Positions 3,510-43,982 of a stretch of DNA of 64,000 nt are shown in pieces. Under the pieces are notes generated by a model. The model saw only the letters and a list, made by a program, of their open reading frames with translations, made no database searches and had not been told where the DNA came from. The position numbers and the translations under genes were made by a program. This DNA comes from Escherichia coli (lineage in GTDB: Bacteria > Pseudomonadota > Gammaproteobacteria > Enterobacterales > Enterobacteriaceae), in the NCBI RefSeq assembly GCF_050920415.1, contig NZ_CP169309.1; one strand, 5' to 3'. Positions within the stretch are counted from its first letter, which is position 1. Every line of letters begins with the position of its first letter.

Positions 3510-3596
3510 AACATTTAAGCTGATGACCACCACGCTTTTTATTGACCATTTTGCACGCAAACTGGAAAACCTGGCGTCGTCATCTATTCTTAAAGG

Positions 3597-3699
3597 GCAA
3601 GGCAACTAAGCCTGCATTAATGCCAACTTTTAGCGCACGGCTCTCTCCCAAGAGCCATTTCCCTGGACCGAATACAGGAATCGTGTTCGGTCTCTTTTT
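3597..3699 (+). ncRNA. sdsR: SdsR (RyeB) RpoS-dependent sRNA
   Basis: Sequence GCAAGGCAACTAAGCCTGCATTAATGCC...CCGAATACAGGAATCGTGTTCGGTCTCTTTTT matches SdsR as recalled; sigmaS-like -10 TCTATTCTT at 3582..3590; 3' terminator hairpin plus T-run. Confidence 0.7.
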
Positions 3700-3833
3700 A
3701 TCTGTTAAAAGCCAGAAGCATTCCCTTCGCTGACTTTATAGTCAACCATAACACACACTCTACTGTCTGAGTCCAGCGTTTTTTAACATTCTTGTTAAGA
3801 TTATGTGATCTTTAGCGCGGGAGGAAAATATTG

Positions 3834-6586: not shown

Positions 6587-6659
6587 GTACCACTGGCAAA
6601 AAAACAGGCGCGCAGTTTAGCATAAACGCTCCGGCGCAGGCACGCCGGAGCAGTGGGCA

Positions 6660-9293
6660 TTATTTGGGAAGCGCTGTTCCCCATTCACGCCACTCTTTCG
6701 GTTCACTTTCCTGCAACAGGAAGTGCTTGCCTTCCTGGGCTTTCGGTGCCAGCGGCGTACCCGGAGGCGTAGCGAAGGCGATGCCGCCACGGATAAACTG
6801 GTTAAAGGTGCCGGTTTTCACGACGCCGCCCGTCAGACCAAAGTCCAGACTGTAACCCGATGCCAACCAGAAGACGGAATTGTTACGCACCAGGTGTTGA
6901 TAGCGTTTACTGATGCGCATCGCAATCATCACGCGATCTGACAATGTCCCCAGCGTCATTCCGGTAACCGTACCGACTTCCAGACCACGGAACAGCACAG
7001 GCGTACCGATGCCTAACGAACCGGCTTCCGGCGCTTCAACAATAATGCTTAAGCCATCCAGGTAACGCGAATCAGTTATGGTGGCCTCTTGTAATTCAAA
7101 GTCGCGGCGAGGATTGCCCCGGCCTGGTTCGACGTTGATATACGGCTGGAGGATAGTATCAAGATGCTCAACGCCAGCTGCCGAAATTTGCGGTGTGACC
7201 ACTGAGAAGCGTGTACCACCGCGTGCAAAGGTCTGGACATATTCCGGATAGAGTACCGCCTTTGCCTGTACTTCATTGCGCGCGGTAATCAGATCCAGCG
7301 TCTGGATTTGCCCGATATCAATACCGAGATAGCGAATTGGCATCCCGACCGCCAGTTTTCCGGCATCGAAAGCGTGAAGCGTAATTTGCCCGCCAACCGC
7401 ACGGGCCGCTGTTTCGGAAGCATACAGAATACGCTTGTCGCCTTTACGCTGACTGGCGCTGGCACCGCTGAGGTTATCGAAGCTAATAGCTCCCTTTAAT
7501 GCTCTGGAGAGCGGGGATGCCTGTACAGTCAGACCACTACCATTTAGCTGAACTTTCGCCCCACCTTCTGCCCAGAACACGCTGTTGCTGGTCAGAAGGT
7601 TGCGATACTCCGGCTTAATATGCAGATCGATATCAAACGCGTTAGCTCGCGGACGCACAGTAATAACTTCACCAACTTCAAATTTACGGTACAGTACTAC
7701 CGATCCTGCCTGCACATCTGGCAATGTCTCTGCACTCAAACTCACGGTTGTGGTGGGCAAATCGCTAAGGCTGTTCTCCAGTGCTTTTTCCAGATTGGCA
7801 TACAGTGGATAGCTGGCTTTCATCTCGCCTTTATCGCCTGGCAGAATACGTATCCCGCCGTTAATCCATTCTGAGGCGCTGGCACCGAGAAATTCAACGC
7901 CATCCAGCCCCACCTTCACGTCGACACGGCTGTTGACGACAAATTTGCTATCGCCTTTTACCAGTTCGCGATGCTGAGGCTCGATGGCGACGGTAAAGGT
8001 GACGCCTTTGCTGGTGAGTTTACGATCAATAACCTGGCCTACCTGCACGCCGTGAAGAATGAGCGGCTGACCAGCATCAATGCCGTAACTTTCTGGTGCT
8101 GTCAGGGTCAGCGTCAGAACATCTGGCTCATGGAGTAGGGCTTTTTCGCCAGGAACAACAATAAACTCTTTACGTGGCTCACCGTCGCCCGGCACCAACT
8201 CGAAGGTTTTGCCGGTCAGCAAGGCACTGAGATTAGCATCGCTAAGGGATAATTTTGGATTACGTAATTCGATGCGGGTATTTTCCCGTAACAGCGTGAC
8301 GACGCTGGGATCAACGGTCATTTCCCCAGTGACTTTACCACCAGGATTTAAATCCAGTTTAGTCAGCTGTCCGACTTCCAGCCCCTGATACATTAACGGC
8401 GTCGAGTCGGCGGTTAATCCGGCCCCACTCGGCAGTTCCAGTTTTATTATTACGCCACGCTGGCTGTGGGCGAGATCTTCATACAGACCAAAGGTATCTT
8501 CCGCCTCGGCAGGTTTCGACTCTTCAGGTGAATCGAAGGCAATCGCACCGTTAACCAGTGCCGCCAGACTTTCCAGTTTCACCTTCGCGCCACTGATACT
8601 GACGTTGGCATCAACGCCGGAAACGTTCCAGAAACGGCTACCTTTTTTCACCAGATCGGTAAAACGCCGCTCGATCAGGACATCAATCACCACGCCTTGC
8701 TTATTGGGATTGATGGCATAGTCGTAGACTTTACCCACCGGGATCTTACGGAAATATACCAATGAACCACTGTTCAGTGAACCGAGATCGGGGGCTTGCA
8801 GGTGGATCATCAGATCGCCATTATCCAGCCGATACTTCGGTTGGGTATCGAGTGCGACAAAGTGATCCTGCTCTTTACCTTTACCCGGCATCATGCCGAT
8901 ATAGTTACCCCCGACGAGGGCGTCCAGCCCGGAGACACCTGCCAACGAGGCTTTTGGCGTCACCAGCCAGAACTGTGTCTCCTCGCGCAGCGCATCTTTC
9001 ATATCGGACTTGATGCTGACTTTGACTTCAATCTTACGAAGATCGTCGCTCAGGCTGATATCCTGCACTGTTCCGACCTCAACGCCCTGATAACGAACAG
9101 GTGTGCGGCCCGGGACGATACCGTCCGCCGACATAAAGTCGATGGTGACGGTATTACCCCGATCCTGATAACTGTCCCAAATCAGCCAACCGGCAATCAT
9201 AAGCGCGATGAACGGCAGCAGCCAGAAAGGTGAGATACGGCGTTTATTTTTAATCTGCGCTTCAGTCGTCGAAGCGGGCGTTTCCTGACTCAT
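6660..9293 (-). CDS. letB: lipophilic envelope-spanning tunnel protein LetB (multi-MCE domain)
   Basis: ORF 6660..9335; start at MSQETPAST... gives 877 aa; N-terminal TM helix then repeated MCE domains. Confidence 0.9.
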
Positions 9294-10545
9294 GTGCATC
9301 CCAAAGTAAGCGGCTGTCCAGCCATTCCACAGCAAGAATAGTCAAAATTACCGCTGCGCCGAAATAAAACGCAGCCGGTCCCATAGTAAAAGCGAGGATC
9401 TGATCGCGATTAATTAGCGACATGGTTAAAGATATGACAAACAGGTCGAGCATCGACCAGCGACCGATCCAGGTCACCATCCGCAGTAACAGAATCCGTG
9501 TGCGTAAACCTTGCTGGCATTTAAAATGAATGCTCAACAGTAAAGTGAACATGACGATCACTTTGGTAAATGGCACCAGAATACTGGCGATAAACACGAT
9601 TCCGGCGACCGCAATGTTGCTACTTGCCAGCGACATAATCCCGGAAAGAATCGTATCTTCCTGCCGGCCACCATTCAGATAAATGATAGAAATAGGTAAC
9701 AGGTTGGCAGGTAACAACAACACGATTGATGCTAACAGCGCCGCCCAGCACTTTTGCAGACTATGACGGCGACGCAGGCGTAGCGGGATATGGCAACGCG
9801 GGCAGCGACCACGCTGATCGGGATAGCCGGTAAAATGGCATCCCAGGCAGACACGAAGTTTCTCGTCCCTACGCGTAGCGGGGCGCTGTGGATAAAATCG
9901 CGCCCACAGTTCCTCGACATTAAGATGTGACAACGTCACCGTGGTCAATATCACTAATGCAACAAAAGAGAACAGACCAATACCCGCCTGAATGTGCGCA
10001 TAATCCTGCACCTTTATAGAAGCAACGCCAATACCGACCAGATAGATGTCCAGCATCACCCACTCTTTCAATCGCTCAAGCATCAGCAGTACCGGGCGTA
10101 GATTCATTCCCAGTCGGTTACCAAACCATAAATAAGCTATGGAGGTCACCAGAATAAGGGGGGCACCAATAACGCAAAAAAAGACCATCGCCCCCGTTAT
10201 TGCATCGCCCTGTTTGGTCATTTGCCAGATGCCTTGCATGACATTGGCGTCAATACGAATACCTAACAGCCAGATATGCAACAGCGGTTCGCCCCAGGCA
10301 AACGGCATCAGCAACAGCATGGTGAATGCCATTGCTGCCAGGCGCGTTAGCGACCAGTCGCGCCCGTCACGAATTTTTGCCTGACAGCGCGGACAATAGG
10401 CACTTTGATGAGAGTTTATCTCGGGTAGGCTAAACAGCATGTCACATTGCGGGCAACGTTGGTAATCACCACGCGGCAGTTCCTCGCCAATTGCCCTCAC
10501 TGTTATCTTTTTTGTCGGCGTAATTTGTGGTGTGTTAAGAGCCAT
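9262..10545 (-). CDS. letA: inner membrane protein LetA (PqiA family)
   Basis: ORF 427 aa; Cys-rich zinc-ribbon-like motifs (CPQC...CPRC) and TM segments; 3' end overlaps letB start by 32 nt. Confidence 0.9.
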
Positions 10546-10674
10546 GACGTGCCAAATGTAATAAGAATTAACATTAATCTTAACCCATGATGGGAATGAT
10601 CTTGAGCATTAACGCATTTAATGCTTATTTTAATAGGCTGGCAGTTCCAGGTAAGACAACCAAGTGATTATATA

Positions 10675-18542: not shown

Positions 18543-19211
18543 TCCTTCCTCAATCTTGAGTAACCCCGTCGTTGAAGGGTTACTCAATTCATCCTGATTA
18601 TACGCACTGTCATGGTGCAACTGCTTCAAATTAAAACTCTGGTCTGACTTCAAATAATTATCATATTATTTATTTGCGTAACGGGATATCAGAAAAAGAT
18701 ATTTAGCCCATTAATTTATTAGGATGTTTACATCGGATTTGTGATTAAGCGTGTTATTATTTATTAGCGAAACGTTTCTCTCTTGATTTTTTTGCGCATT
18801 CATCAATTTTTCTTATTTTAAATTTACAATACCTTTGGCGATTGACTTCTCTTTGGGGTGATTGATAGCCGTTAACTGACTGTTTTATGAGAAAAAGTGA
18901 TATAACTTTTTATTCATTGCATAGCAGAAAATGTGATATTGCACGCACTATGTAATAACTTCTCCCATTGGCCTGGAACAACTGAACTTATTGAACTATG
19001 TTAGAAAATACGTCAGTTTAAGTATCTGCCTGAACTGGCAAGGTTAAGCACAATGATATATCGGCGCGTATTCCGTTGCATAAGTGTGCAAAAAAAGTGG
19101 AAGACGTATCGAGATTTGTGCGTCTGATCGAGACATGTTTAAAAATGGCTTGCCATAATTAACGTTGTATGTGATAACAGATTTCGGGTTAAACGAGGTA
19201 CAGTTCTGTTT

Positions 19212-19355
19212 ATGTGTGGCATTTTCAGTAAAGAAGTCCTGAGTAAACACGTTGACGTTGAATACCGCTTCTCTGCCGAGCCTTATATTGGTGCCTCATG
19301 CAGTAATGTGTCAGTTTTATCTATGTTATGCCTGCGGGCGAAGAAAACAATCTAA
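19212..19355 (+). CDS. yobF: small protein YobF
   Basis: 47-codon [50 protein letters not shown] read by eye, 12 nt upstream of cspC; absent from ORF track. Confidence 0.8.
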
Positions 19356-19367
19356 GGAATTTTTCAA

Positions 19368-19577
19368 ATGGCAAAGATTAAAGGTCAGGTTAAGTGGTTC
19401 AACGAGTCTAAAGGTTTTGGCTTCATTACTCCGGCTGATGGCAGCAAAGACGTGTTCGTACACTTCTCCGCTATCCAGGGTAATGGCTTCAAAACTCTGG
19501 CTGAAGGTCAGAACGTTGAGTTCGAAATTCAGGACGGCCAGAAAGGTCCGGCAGCTGTTAACGTAACAGCTATCTGA
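19368..19577 (+). CDS. cspC: cold-shock-domain protein CspC
   Basis: ORF 69 aa [20 protein letters not shown]... with RNP motifs. Confidence 0.97.
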
Positions 19578-19622
19578 TCGAATCCACTGATCTGAAGTGT
19601 GAATACGCTTCAATCTCGCTAT

Positions 19623-19649
19623 AAAGCCTCGTCGAATGCGAGGCTTTTT
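19623..19649 (+). terminator. intrinsic terminator of cspC
   Basis: stem AAAGCCTCG / CGAGGCTTT followed by TT. Confidence 0.8.
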
Positions 19650-19742
19650 ACTTTGCTTTATCTTCGCTCCTGGCATTCGGATATTTGCCCGCCGCGTGAT
19701 TCGCGTTACACTTGCGGCCTTTAGTATCCTGCCGGAGTTGTC

Positions 19743-37055: not shown

Positions 37056-38741
37056 TTGAAGAAGGTTTGGCTTAACCGTTATCCCGCGGACGTTCCGACG
37101 GAGATCAACCCTGACCGTTATCAATCTCTGGTAGATATGTTTGAGCAGTCGGTCGCGCGCTACGCCGATCAACCCGCGTTTGTGAATATGGGGGAGGTGA
37201 TGACCTTCCGCAAACTGGAAGAACGCAGTCGCGCGTTTGCCGCTTATTTGCAACAAGGGTTGGGACTGAAGAAAGGCGATCGCGTTGCGTTGATGATGCC
37301 TAATTTATTGCAATATCCGGTGGCGCTGTTTGGCATTTTGCGTGCCGGGATGATTGTCGTAAACGTTAACCCGTTGTATACCCCGCGTGAACTTGAGCAT
37401 CAGCTTAACGATAGCGGCGCATCGGCGATTGTTATCGTGTCTAACTTTGCCCACACTCTGGAAAAAGTGGTTGATAAAACCGCCGTTCAGCACGTAATTC
37501 TGACCCGTATGGGCGATCAGCTATCTACGGCAAAAGGCACGGTAGTCAATTTCGTTGTTAAATACATCAAGCGTCTGGTGCCGAAATACCATCTGCCAGA
37601 TGCCATCTCATTTCGTAGCGCCCTGCACAACGGCTACCGGATGCAGTACGTCAAACCCGAACTGGTGCCGGAAGATTTAGCTTTCCTGCAATACACCGGC
37701 GGTACCACTGGTGTGGCGAAAGGCGCGATGCTGACTCACCGCAATATGCTGGCGAACCTGGAACAGGTTAACGCGACTTATGGGCCGCTGTTGCATCCGG
37801 GCAAAGAGCTGGTGGTGACGGCGCTGCCGCTGTATCACATTTTTGCACTGACCATTAACTGCCTGCTGTTTATTGAACTGGGTGGGCAGAACTTGCTTAT
37901 CACTAACCCGCGCGATATTCCGGGGTTGGTAAAAGAGTTAGCGAAATATCCGTTTACCGCGATAACCGGCGTTAACACCTTGTTCAATGCGTTGCTGAAC
38001 AATAAAGAGTTCCAGCAGCTGGATTTCTCCAGTCTGCATCTTTCTGCAGGCGGTGGTATGCCTGTTCAACAAGTGGTGGCTGAACGTTGGGTGAAACTGA
38101 CCGGACAGTATCTGCTGGAAGGTTATGGCCTGACCGAGTGTGCGCCGCTGGTCAGCGTTAACCCGTATGATATTGATTATCATAGTGGTAGCATCGGTTT
38201 GCCGGTGCCGTCGACGGAAGCCAAACTGGTGGATGATGATGATAACGAAGTACCACCGGGTCAACCGGGTGAGCTTTGTGTCAAAGGACCGCAGGTGATG
38301 CTGGGCTACTGGCAGCGTCCGGATGCCACTGATGAAATCATCAAAAACGGTTGGCTACACACTGGCGACATTGCCGTAATGGACGAAGAAGGTTTCTTAC
38401 GCATCGTTGATCGCAAAAAAGACATGATTCTGGTTTCCGGTTTTAACGTCTATCCCAACGAGATTGAAGATGTCGTCATGCAGCATCCTGGCGTACAGGA
38501 AGTCGCGGCTGTTGGCGTACCTTCCGGCTCAAGTGGTGAAGCGGTGAAAATCTTCGTTGTGAAAAAAGATCCATCGCTTACCGAAGAGTCACTGGTGACT
38601 TTTTGCCGCCGTCAGCTCACGGGCTACAAAGTACCGAAGCTGGTGGAGTTTCGTGATGAGTTACCGAAATCTAACGTCGGAAAAATTTTGCGACGAGAAT
38701 TACGTGACGAAGCGCGCGGCAAAGTGGACAATAAAGCCTGA
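37056..38741 (+). CDS. fadD: long-chain fatty acid-CoA ligase
   Basis: ORF 36990..38741; known TTG start at 37056 giving (M)[15 protein letters not shown]..., 561 aa; AMP-binding motif [16 protein letters not shown]. Confidence 0.95.
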
Positions 38742-38760
38742 GCGTTAAGTCAGTCGTCAG

Positions 38761-38787
38761 ACGCCGGTTAATCCGGCGTTTTTTTTG
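38761..38787 (+). terminator. intrinsic terminator of fadD
   Basis: stem ACGCCGG / CCGGCGT, loop TTAAT, followed by TTTTTTTT. Confidence 0.85.
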
Positions 38788-42168: not shown

Positions 42169-43779
42169 TCAGTTGTCGCCTTTGAATACGGTTCCAGCAG
42201 GAAGCACTGGCGCTTTTCCCGGGGCTTCAACCGGTGTCTGCGGGAGATAATGTTCAACTTGATGAGCTGGAATGTCGGCGTAATCCTGTTTCAGCCAGCG
42301 AATAAATCCGCCGACTTTCACCAGTAAAATGGCGAGGAAGGGAAGGGCAGTGAGGACGACGGTAGTTTTCATTGTTTCCAGCGAAGCACCGGTAAACAAG
42401 ATGGAAAGCGGGATCAGAGTGATCACTACGCACCAGAACAGACGCAGCCCACGGTCAGGATCGTCACCTTCCTGGAGATTACGCGTGCTGGTCGCCGCCA
42501 TGGTGTAAGCCACCGCATCCATATGCGAGGCGAGGAAGATAATCATCACGCCCAGGTATGCGGCGAGGAACAATTTACCGGCTGGCAACGACATCAGAAC
42601 TTGCTGCACAGCTGTTTCGCCGCCCAGTGTTTCCAGCACCTGTGGGACGTTGATTACGCCATTGATAAACTGATGAATGGCATAGCTTTCCATTACACCG
42701 AAGAAGAACCAGCAACCGACAGTGCTGCCGAGGATCAGTCCCCAGATAACTTCTTTAATCTTTCGACCGCGCGAAACGCGGGTGACAAACATTGCTACGC
42801 CAGGGGTGTATGAGATCCACCACAGCCAGTAGAAAACGGTCCAGTTGCGGGTAAATGAACCATCGCCAAGCGGATCGGTGAATAAGCTCATTTGCAGGAA
42901 GTTTTGCGTGGTCAGGCCGATGGCATTGATGATGCTGTTGGTAATAAATTCGGTTGGACCGACAATCAGCACCAGTAATGGCAGCAGGAATGCGCCCCAG
43001 CCAACCATTTTGCTTAGACGTTGCAAACCGTTGTTGATACCAATCCACGAGCTTAGGCAAAAAATGCCGCCGGAAAGCAGGATCACAAATGCCTGTACGG
43101 TAAAGTTATCGGGTAAACCGGTCAGCGCGGAAAGCCCACGGGTAAAGGTTGCTGCGGTGACAACAAGGGAAATGGTCAGTGCGCCGACAGTGGCGATCAG
43201 GAACATCAAATCGACCAGTTTCCCCCACGGGCCTTGCGGGCGAACGCCGGTAATAGCAGCAATAATGCCGGAAAGGCTCAGCCCTTTATTTTTCCGCACA
43301 TGAAAGTGATAAGCCATGATTAATGAGGCCAGCGTATAAGTTGCCCAGGCGCTGATGCCCCAGTGGAAGAAGGAGTAGGGAACGCTAAATTCGAGTGCCT
43401 GTTGTGAACGCGGTGCGATATTTAATCCAGGCGTTTGATAATAATAGGCCCATTCAGCAACCCCCCAATAAAGCGTAGAAGAACCTAAACCTGCACAAAT
43501 AAACATAAACAGCCAGGAGAGCGTGCTGTATTCCGGTTTTCCTTCGCCAAGACGAATATTGCCGTATTTACTGGTGGCTAAATAAATCACCAGTCCCATT
43601 GCCAGCAAAACCAATACCTGTACGGCGGAACCTAACGTACGCGTGACAAAAGTGTATATAGCGTTTGCCGCGTCGGCCGATTGTTGTGGGAAAAGGCTTA
43701 ATGCAGCTGCGATGAAAAGAATGGCCACCAGGCTGATGCTTATCAACGGCACATCTTTTTTCTTAACATTGCTCATCAT
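42169..43779 (-). CDS. yeaV: BCCT-family transporter
   Basis: ORF 536 aa with AGGAG RBS 7 nt upstream of ATG at 43779; K-12 annotation as recalled is shorter, so start uncertain. Confidence 0.85.
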
Positions 43780-43982
43780 GAGTCATCTCCTGGGCATAAA
43801 AGCCCGCCTCTGGCTTTTGCCAGTTGTAATTATTTGCAGGGTATGAGTTGTATGTTGTGTTTAACAAATTGATTATTTACATGTTACATAAATTAAACAA
43901 TTAAGAATACGGAAAGCCATAAAACACGAAACGGAAACAATAAAAGGTGAAATGACGCAGGTTATTTACTGCAAAGAACGAA

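Follow-up and report, generated by a model that had tools for sequence, protein, structure and literature searches.

Introduction

The closest described system to the locus analysed here is the LetA-LetB pair of Escherichia coli K-12 (PDB 9n8w/9n8x; PMC13017536). LetA, a protein of the inner membrane, carries two PqiA repeats and two zinc ribbons. A single LetA lies below a hexamer of LetB, i.e. the stoichiometry of the complex is 1 LetA to 6 LetB, and the MCE rings of LetB, seven in number, are stacked into a hydrophobic tunnel of about 225 Å across the periplasm. In vivo crosslinking shows that the entry of phospholipid into this tunnel depends on LetA, and the LetAB complex, when purified, is enriched in PE. 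The same work (Santarossa et al., Nature 2026) already states that the two genes overlap by 32 bp, and the authors' selection assay took a refactored letAB without the overlap as its wild-type reference (PMC13017536). The operon, the structures of both proteins, the phospholipid cargo and the 32-bp overlap are thus already published.

A paralogous system is PqiA-PqiB-PqiC, which is paraquat-inducible and likewise pairs a PqiA-family membrane protein with a multi-MCE protein. The gene neighbourhood of type IV multi-MCE proteins has also been described (PMC5561183).

In its geometry the overlap resembles the coat and lysis genes of the phages fr and MS2 (-38 and -50 nt), where, as in letAB, two co-directional genes overlap out of frame and the downstream start lies within the upstream ORF. 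For the phages, experiments have shown that translation of the lysis gene depends on that of the coat gene; for letAB, the required ratio of six downstream to one upstream product argues against such a dependence. According to a 2025 review, translational coupling is most efficient at a spacing of -4 to +3 nt and drops faster as the overlap grows, and in one systematic study no coupling was found at -25 nt (PMC12548453).

Here, we analysed a window of 64,000 nucleotides from E. coli (RefSeq assembly GCF_050920415.1, contig NZ_CP169309.1). The window is colinear with 1.863-1.927 Mb of the K-12 chromosome.

Results

The letAB operon and its surroundings

The region 6660-10545, on the minus strand, is the known and well-studied E. 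coli letA-letB (yebS-yebT) operon, and its ends are exactly the outer limits of letA and letB. The genes and their flanks are:

9262..10545, minus strand: letA (yebS) coding sequence, 427 aa, with the stop TGA at 9264-9262 (ORF, RefSeq)
6660..9293, minus strand: letB (yebT) coding sequence, 877 aa, with the start ATG at 9293-9291 and the stop at 6662-6660 (ORF, RefSeq)
10546..10674, strand not applicable: divergent letA-msrC intergenic region, presumed to bear the promoters (RefSeq boundaries)
6627..6652, minus strand: GC-rich, terminator-like hairpin of 11 pairs with an imperfect T tract (consensus scan)

The gene context in RefSeq is rsmF-yebT-yebS on one side and msrC-proQ-prc on the other. 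The RefSeq boundaries, including the 32-nt overlap, are identical in a 100%-identical strain and in K-12 MG1655, and the segment is found in 5424 of the 5426 complete E. coli genomes. The window shares with K-12 LetA-LetB the genes, their chromosomal context, the protein lengths (427 and 877 aa) and the overlap. The nucleotide differences from K-12, 4.9% in letA and 3.6% in letB, are almost all synonymous.

The letA-msrC intergenic region has a single difference from K-12 in 129 nt, and letA itself shows the 4.9% divergence given above. A sigma-70 consensus scan gave no match at threshold in this region, and the three matches in the whole scan did not exceed the expectation from shuffled sequence. 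At the other end of the operon, the terminator-like hairpin starts 8 nt past the letB stop and has the same sequence in K-12.

LetA and LetB are orthologous to the proteins of the solved complex

LetA contains two PqiA domains (PF04403, E=1.9e-81, 271.9 bits) and scores 701.7 bits against TIGR00155, the PqiA/YebS family, where the cutoff is 260.35. Residues 1-427 match PDB 9n8w_A (E=5.8e-290), and there are three amino acid differences from K-12 LetA. The score against the PqiA equivalog NF011683, 210.5, is under the cutoff of 562. LetB contains seven MlaD/MCE domains (PF02470, E=1.6e-84), its residues 1-877 match PDB 9n8w_B with 1953 bits, and it differs from K-12 LetB at two positions. Against the PqiB equivalog NF008070 it scores 474.3, under the cutoff of 525. 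By these matches, we identify LetA as the orthologue of the structurally characterised LetA and not of its paralogue PqiA, and LetB as the orthologue of the solved LetB and not of PqiB. Pfam, NCBIfam, the matches to the LetAB complex and RefSeq all agree with the names that a preliminary description of this DNA had given to the two genes.

Four regions of the proteins can be placed on the sequence:

10384..10455, minus strand: N-terminal zinc-ribbon tetracysteine of LetA, C31-P-Q-C34...C51-P-R-C54, n=16 (translation)
9793..9849, minus strand: C-terminal zinc-ribbon tetracysteine of LetA, C233-L-G-C236...C248-P-R-C251, n=11 (translation)
9159..9254, minus strand: N-terminal TM anchor region of LetB, residues 14-45 (sequence, with the helix range from PMC13017536)
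6663..9161, minus strand: periplasmic region of LetB with seven tandem MCE domains (seven PF02470 matches)

The preliminary description had noticed a PqiA-like LetA with paired CPQC...CPRC cysteines, which are indeed found at residues 31-54; a second motif, CLGC...CPRC, is present at 233-251. A zinc ribbon has been defined as CXXC-Xn-CXXC with n=11-18, and LetA binds about two zinc atoms (PMC13017536). Both motifs have this form, and all their cysteines are invariant in the homologue alignment. The description of LetB as an 877-aa protein with one TM anchor and multiple tandem MCE domains was also correct, the Pfam count being seven. The periplasmic region matches the structures 6v0c, 6kz3 and 6kz4. 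The LetB structures 6v0c-6v0j are those of Isom et al.

The preliminary description had further called the transported substrate unresolved. This is partly out of date, given the crosslinking of phospholipid and the enrichment of PE in the published work.

Comparison with pqiABC

The pqiABC paralogue is absent from the window, and the K-12 copy was used for comparison. LetA shares 29% identity with PqiA; for LetB and PqiB the figure is about 33% over the first domains. LetA and PqiA have the DxRLxWD tail motif and the zinc-ribbon cysteines in common, whereas the MCE proteins differ: PqiB has three MCE domains and a C-terminal needle, and LetB has seven domains. In agreement with the assignment above, LetA and LetB of the window score under the PqiA and PqiB equivalog cutoffs. 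The gene orders differ too. The pqi operon includes a gene for an outer-membrane lipoprotein, pqiC, but letB, which lies directly 3' of the gene with two PqiA domains, is followed by rsmF and has no DUF330/PqiC lipoprotein gene next to it, which is the arrangement of a type IV multi-MCE protein (PMC5561183). Finally, pqiA and pqiB do not overlap but are separated by a 4-nt gap, and pqiB has a strong GAGGAG Shine-Dalgarno (SD) sequence, in contrast to the weak GGGA of letB. The overlap between pqiB and pqiC is 4 nt.

The overlap and the start codon of letB

The two coding sequences share the following stretch:

9262..9293, minus strand: 32-nt letA/letB overlap, covering LetA residues 418-427 with the stop, and LetB residues 1-11 (ORFs)

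It had been reported from the sequence that letA ends 32 nt inside letB, and both the coordinates and RefSeq confirm this length; the strand, left unstated there, is minus. The frame had been given as -1, however, while letB is in frame +1 relative to letA at every locus compared. The letB ATG begins at the second base of the letA codon His418.

We compared 80 junctions from Enterobacteriaceae, i.e. 79 loci and the window. The overlap is 32 nt long in 76 of them and 44 nt in the other four, and across lineages it measures 56, 44, 38, 32, 8 or 0 nt. In spite of this varying length, the letB ATG stays just past the conserved LetA motif RL(L/I)W(D/K). LetA 419-427 and LetB 1-13 are unresolved in the cryo-EM structures (PMC13017536), and the doubly coded stretch comprises only these cytoplasmic tails of the two proteins. 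The overlap is tolerated, and its length drifts, because nothing but such tails is coded twice.

The longest ORF in the letB frame is 9335..6660. Before the TM helix this frame contains only three ATG, GTG or TTG codons, namely TTG 9335, ATG 9299 and ATG 9293. ATG 9293 is kept in 80 of the 80 junctions and is the sole candidate start with this conservation; in the same set, the codon of His418 is CAT and that of Glu419 is GAG without exception. Three other starts were considered and rejected. About 20 of the 80 junctions lack ATG 9299, among them that of the E. coli species representative. Three loci have no TTG 9335, and the extra peptide encoded from this codon is not conserved, as the variable third positions of letA are second positions in the letB frame. 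The next in-frame methionine downstream is Met46 (ATG 9200), within the TM helix or at its end; a start there would remove the TM anchor, and the codon is absent in many species. A letB start beyond the letA stop, which the preliminary description had named as the finding that would overturn its reading, is therefore not what we see. This conservation identifies ATG 9293 as the true, conserved start of letB.

A conserved island of synonymous sites at the junction

Synonymous variation is low around the letB start:

9225..9346, minus strand: island of low synonymous variation, from about -53 to +68 nt relative to the letB start (third-position entropy)

In this island of about 120 nt, the mean third-position entropy is 0.16-0.33 bits, compared with a mean of 1.21 for letA and 0.91 for the lowest window of equal size elsewhere in letA. 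The junction is the minimum of synonymous entropy for the whole operon, and the minimum already begins about 50 nt before the ATG, where the sequence codes for LetA only. In this upstream block, 6 of 16 degenerate third positions do not vary at all, compared with 1 of 372 elsewhere. The same pattern is found within the species, where a 106-nt junction segment that contains the block has at least 99% identity in 5423 of the 5424 E. coli genomes, and a control segment from the middle of letA reaches this in 15 genomes. An 80-nt segment of the junction is identical to K-12. The frozen synonymous sites could also have a cause other than a generic initiation region, such as a regulator-binding site.

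The predicted accessibility of positions -15 to +10 of the letB start is at the 91st percentile, and that of the letA start at the 93rd. Folding the junction as a single sequence gave an energy no better than that of shuffled sequences (z = -0.55). RNAalifold on 72 sequences predicted 28 pairs, and its count of compensatory changes (0/28; covariation term -0.23) carries no information as the region is nearly invariant. We propose that the island is a putative internal translation-initiation region within the 3' end of letA.

Initiation of letB translation

A candidate ribosome-binding site lies inside letA:

9299..9302, minus strand: weak Shine-Dalgarno-like GGGA, 5 nt upstream of the letB ATG, in the letA codons Trp415-Asp416 (anti-SD duplex energy)

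The duplex of GGGA with the anti-SD has an energy of -4.0 kcal/mol, a value also reached by 29% of the 20-nt windows taken at random from letAB. The search for a strong ribosome-binding site for letB inside letA found just this motif, which is within the background. The two genes overlap co-directionally on the same strand with a spacing of -32 nt, outside the efficient range of -4 to +3. The preliminary description had held that the overlap implies translational coupling; this is not the default expectation and is not established.

Discussion

Taken together, the locus is very probably best read as the letAB operon with a 32-nt overlap, with letB starting at ATG 9293 and being translated mainly by de novo initiation. 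According to this reading, fresh initiation would take place at a conserved, SD-poor and relatively unstructured region within the final ~50 nt of letA. Independent initiation would permit a LetB output higher than that of LetA, as the 6:1 complex needs, and coupling to letA, by unwinding or by a 29-nt back-scan from the UGA, would make a minor contribution if any. The LetB:LetA synthesis ratio used here is taken from the stoichiometry of a purified, over-expressed complex.

The alternatives differ in what they make of the overlap. That it is an annotation artefact, with LetB starting at TTG 9335, ATG 9299 or Met46 (9200), is extremely improbable: although TTG 9335 opens the longest ORF in the letB frame and ATG 9299 is found in the window just two codons upstream of 9293, conservation and the loss of the TM helix argue against the three starts, and any candidate that retains the helix overlaps letA anyway. 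If the overlap is real, letB could be tightly coupled to letA by termination-reinitiation, with a back-scan of 29 nt from the UGA at 9264-9262 to the AUG at 9293. The genes are co-directional and overlapping, with an SD so weak that de novo initiation might be poor, and in phage fr the coat and lysis genes, at -38 nt, are coupled by a scan that ends at the nearest start (PMC12548453). The universal one of the two neighbouring ATGs is the closer to the letA stop, which fits this rule. We nevertheless regard tight coupling as unlikely, since the output of LetB by reinitiation cannot exceed that of LetA, whereas the complex contains six LetB per LetA, and since reporter studies show the steep loss with growing overlap described above, one of them finding no coupling at -25 nt (PMC12548453). 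Moreover, the letA stop shifts in some lineages (44, 38 or 56 nt) while the start is fixed, and the published selection used the refactored operon, which has no overlap, as its wild-type reference (PMC13017536).

A further alternative concerns the invariant stretch of ~50 nt that precedes the letB ATG. Instead of just a generic initiation region, it could be a specific cis-regulatory RNA site that tunes LetB synthesis, for example one for CsrA (at GGA motifs) or for an sRNA or ProQ. The frozen third positions (6/16 vs 1/372) would fit such a site. GGA motifs are found at -35, -26, -8 and +8, three of them 100% conserved, where 1.8 per 120 nt are expected, but two are forced by amino-acid or dual coding. 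One of the motifs overlaps the SD-like GGGAUG, and another would form the loop of a possible hairpin, GGCU-GGAC-AGCC; this hairpin is not conserved in an orthologue of 44% identity (L088). The variable sites sit in predicted loops, but none of the 28 pairs is compensatory, the fold z-score is -0.55, and none of the papers in the library searched connects yebT with CsrA. We consider such a specific site doubtful. The broader idea that the block at about 9294-9346, whose synonymous sites hardly vary across Enterobacteriaceae, is a dedicated cis-acting RNA element of some kind, either an SD-independent translational enhancer or a regulator site (e.g. CsrA at GGA), is a little less doubtful, though still tentative. 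If it is true, this element would set the 6:1 ratio of LetB to LetA synthesis or regulate LetB independently of LetA.

For an operon this well studied, the value added is modest. The comparison confirms the annotated start of letB and the overlap, and a downstream start is excluded. The overlap is cheap, as it codes only for disordered tails, and it is plastic in length while the position of the start is fixed. The sharply bounded island, which would mark the internal initiation region, is part of what is added. When letAB is recoded or refactored, or when letA is mutated near codons 400-427, effects on the expression of LetB should be expected.

Identity and genomic context of letAB

The identification of the genes as letA (yebS) and letB (yebT) is correct according to Pfam, NCBIfam, the comparison with K-12 and the solved LetAB complex (9n8w/9n8x), which both proteins match over their full length. 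As the preliminary description had it, LetA is PqiA-like and LetB contains multiple tandem MCE domains: Pfam finds two PqiA repeats and seven MlaD/MCE stretches, respectively, and the translation of letA contains CPQC…CPRC and a second motif, CLGC…CPRC. In NCBIfam, LetA is above the cutoff for the PqiA/YebS family, while the PqiA and PqiB equivalog models each stay below cutoff, as expected of the paralogous Let system.

10545..9262, minus strand: letA, 427 aa, MALNTPQ…ARFDD*
9335..6660, minus strand: longest open reading frame in the letB frame, from ORF reading
32 nt, minus strand: letA-letB overlap, with letB from ATG 9293, 877 aa

The 32-nt overlap agrees with the ORF reading and with RefSeq, which uses the 877-aa letB start both in a 100%-identical E. 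coli strain and in K-12 MG1655. The frame had been given as -1, but relative to letA, letB is read in the +1 frame.

The letAB segment, annotated yebS/yebT, is found in 5424 out of 5426 complete E. coli genomes, with rsmF on one side and msrC-proQ-prc on the other. Identity is 100% to one strain only (MFDS1022581) and at least 99% to five genomes only. Over its full length, the window aligns colinearly with K-12 1,926,803-1,863,028 at ~97% identity (97.1-97.4% over 64 kb). The differences from K-12 are 63 nucleotides and 3 amino acids in letA, and 94 and 2 in letB, so the divergence is almost wholly synonymous (157 nucleotide vs 5 amino-acid differences). Judged by its sequence, the window comes from an E. 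coli lineage that is comparatively divergent.

The identity of letAB, including the overlap length, is already known. The complex has a LetA:LetB stoichiometry of 1:6, with seven MCE rings forming a ~225 Å long tunnel; LetA has tetraspanin-like TM domains and two zinc-ribbon domains (CXXC-Xn-CXXC) binding approximately two Zn atoms (PMC13017536, Nature 2026). The purified complex is enriched in PE, phospholipid crosslinking within the LetB tunnel in vivo depends on LetA, and the deep mutational scan took its wild-type reference from a refactored plasmid with non-overlapping letA and letB ORFs (PMC13017536). With operon, tunnel and 32-bp overlap all published there, the headline of the preliminary description is wholly known. 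The substrate, which it had left open, is phospholipid (PMC13017536); its caution still applies to specificity, direction and energy coupling.

Eight nt past the letB stop there is a GC-rich hairpin:

6652..6627, minus strand: hairpin of 11 pairs with an imperfect T tract

The rsmF gene lies 79 nt downstream of letB. On the other side, letA and msrC diverge from an intergenic region (10546-10674) that has a single change from K-12 in its 129 nt, compared with 4.9% divergence in letA, and a consensus scan of it gave no sigma-70 match. Genomic SELEX placed a sigma-28 (FliA) RNA polymerase holoenzyme peak of the type "inside gene" in yebS (Shimada et al. 2017, PMC5493296), which might be an internal promoter driving letB separately.

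Elsewhere in the window, Rfam gathering-score matches were obtained for the RyeA/SdsR overlapping antisense pair, the cspA-thermoregulator model (covering the yobF-cspC region) and sroD, at positions (together 3559-3703, 19192-19652 and 38700-38785) expected from K-12 synteny. The 64 kb yielded no tRNA genes. A 223-bp segment (43652-43874), missing from K-12 MG1655 at 1,883,151 between dmlA and yeaV, supplies the 5' end of an extended yeaV ORF (BCCT transporter, minus strand). Of 5426 complete E. coli genomes, 2930 have this segment; a deletion truncating the yeaV N-terminus and upstream region is thus carried by K-12 and roughly half of the strains.

The letB start codon

From 80 fetched letAB loci of Enterobacteriaceae (LetA identity 76-98%), we compared the candidate starts in 80 junctions, 79 of them from these loci and one from the window.

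TTG 9335, minus strand: 74-nt overlap, absent from 3 of 80 junctions
ATG 9299, minus strand: 38-nt overlap, 6 nt upstream of ATG 9293, absent from ~20 of 80
ATG 9293, minus strand: 32-nt overlap, 877 aa, kept in 80 of 80
ATG 9200 (Met46), minus strand: absent from many of the 80

The E. coli species representative is among the junctions without ATG 9299. For TTG 9335, varying letA third positions would radically alter any N-terminal extension, and this start was rejected. The first three of these starts precede the TM helix, and there is no ATG, GTG or TTG in the letB frame between ATG 9293 and ATG 9200. At letA codons 418 and 419, every junction has CAT for His and GAG for Glu, the synonymous choice required for preserving the letB ATG. 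The preliminary description named as an alternative a true start at a later Met, past the letA stop; this is excluded because ATG 9293 is always kept while Met46 is often absent and sits where the TM helix region ends (residues 14-45, PMC13017536). The start therefore lies upstream of the letA stop, and it is very improbable that the overlap is a misannotation with letB beginning elsewhere.

The doubly coded stretch comprises LetA residues 418-427 and LetB residues 1-11. The cryo-EM maps do not resolve LetA 419-427 or LetB 1-13 (PMC13017536), therefore dual coding constrains these tails only. The letA end is variable: in four loci (L013, L031, L032 and L063, from Citrobacter spp. and Superficieibacter electus) its TGA has become GGA, adding four residues (GSAD or GSAN) and extending the overlap to 44 nt with letB start unchanged. 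Distant orthologues were taken by synteny with proQ-prc or rsmF:

L086: LetA identity 50%, overlap 56 nt
L088: LetA identity 44%, overlap 38 nt
L089: LetA identity 38%, overlap 8 nt
L090: LetA identity 39%, no overlap

The letB ATG is located just past the conserved LetA motif RL(L/I)W(D/K) in E. coli, L086 and L088 alike, and it is the letA stop that shifts. The paralogous pqiA and pqiB do not overlap but are separated by 4 nt, with a strong GAGGAG Shine-Dalgarno (SD) sequence within the pqiA end; pqiB-pqiC overlap by 4 nt.

Three fetched loci are unusual. Frameshifts split letB near codon 62-70 in Kluyvera ascorbata ATCC 33433 (L062) and near codon 690 in Citrobacter amalonaticus AUH_CA_2023_1 (L008), either pseudogenes or assembly errors. 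Contig NODE_3 of a record named Chryseobacterium sp. 18061 (L064) carries a typical enterobacterial letAB (LetA identity 79%, 32-nt overlap), and this assembly is probably contaminated or mislabelled.

Synonymous constraint at the junction

Third-codon-position entropy was calculated over the 63 junctions that are intact and colinear, 62 from orthologous loci and one from the window. The mean is 1.21 bits in letA and 1.23 bits in letB, and the last ~25 letA codons form the operon-wide minimum, at 0.16-0.33 bits. The drop starts ~50 nt ahead of the letB ATG, before the dual-coded part. In this pre-overlap block, the 16 degenerate codons average 0.32 bits, compared with a minimum of 0.91 for equal-sized letA windows elsewhere, and 6 of 16 third positions are invariant vs 1 of 372 elsewhere. 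Within E. coli, the 106-nt junction segment is at least 99% identical in 5423 out of 5424 genomes, a level that a mid-letA control of equal length reaches in 15 only.

Initiation of letB translation

Of a ribosome-binding site inside letA, which the preliminary description suggested looking for, only a weak SD-like GGGA is present (-4.0 kcal/mol), within the operon background, as it is matched by 29% of random 20-nt operon windows. Predicted accessibility of positions -15 to +10 is at the 91st percentile for the letB start and the 93rd for letA. No special fold is evident at the junction (single-sequence z-score -0.55); in the alignment fold the predicted pairs are invariant, with no compensatory changes, and the few variable junction sites lie in predicted loops.

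GGA motifs occur at -35, -26, -8 and +8 relative to the letB ATG and could possibly form a CsrA-type site. One falls in the loop of a candidate hairpin, whose architecture resembles a CsrA site:

9311-9324, minus strand: UGGCU-GGAC-AGCCG, 18-31 nt before the letB ATG

The hairpin is invariant in Enterobacteriaceae except for a GAC/GAT wobble, is kept in L086 and is absent from L088. Two of the four GGA motifs are coding-forced, and no CsrA link to letB was found in the literature searched. That the block is a dedicated regulator-binding element seems unlikely.

The preliminary description took the overlap to imply translational coupling; this inference is insecure, and the present evidence makes independent initiation the likelier of the two. 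According to a 2025 review, coupling works best at spacings of -4 to +3 nt, is lost faster with growing overlap than with growing separation, and was absent at -25 nt in one systematic study; long overlaps are bridged in phage fr (-38 nt, by back-scanning) and MS2 (-50 nt, by unfolding) (PMC12548453). Strict termination-reinitiation from letA into letB is improbable, since such losses apply to long overlaps and since the downstream protein cannot then exceed the upstream one, yet LetB:LetA is 6:1 in the complex. Because coupling decays at long overlap and six LetB are required for each LetA in the complex, we favour mainly independent initiation of letB, which would occur at a conserved, SD-poor, accessible region inside letA, with any coupling to letA translation being secondary. 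The sole new element here is the sharply bounded island of synonymous constraint, which would mark this internal letB initiation region.
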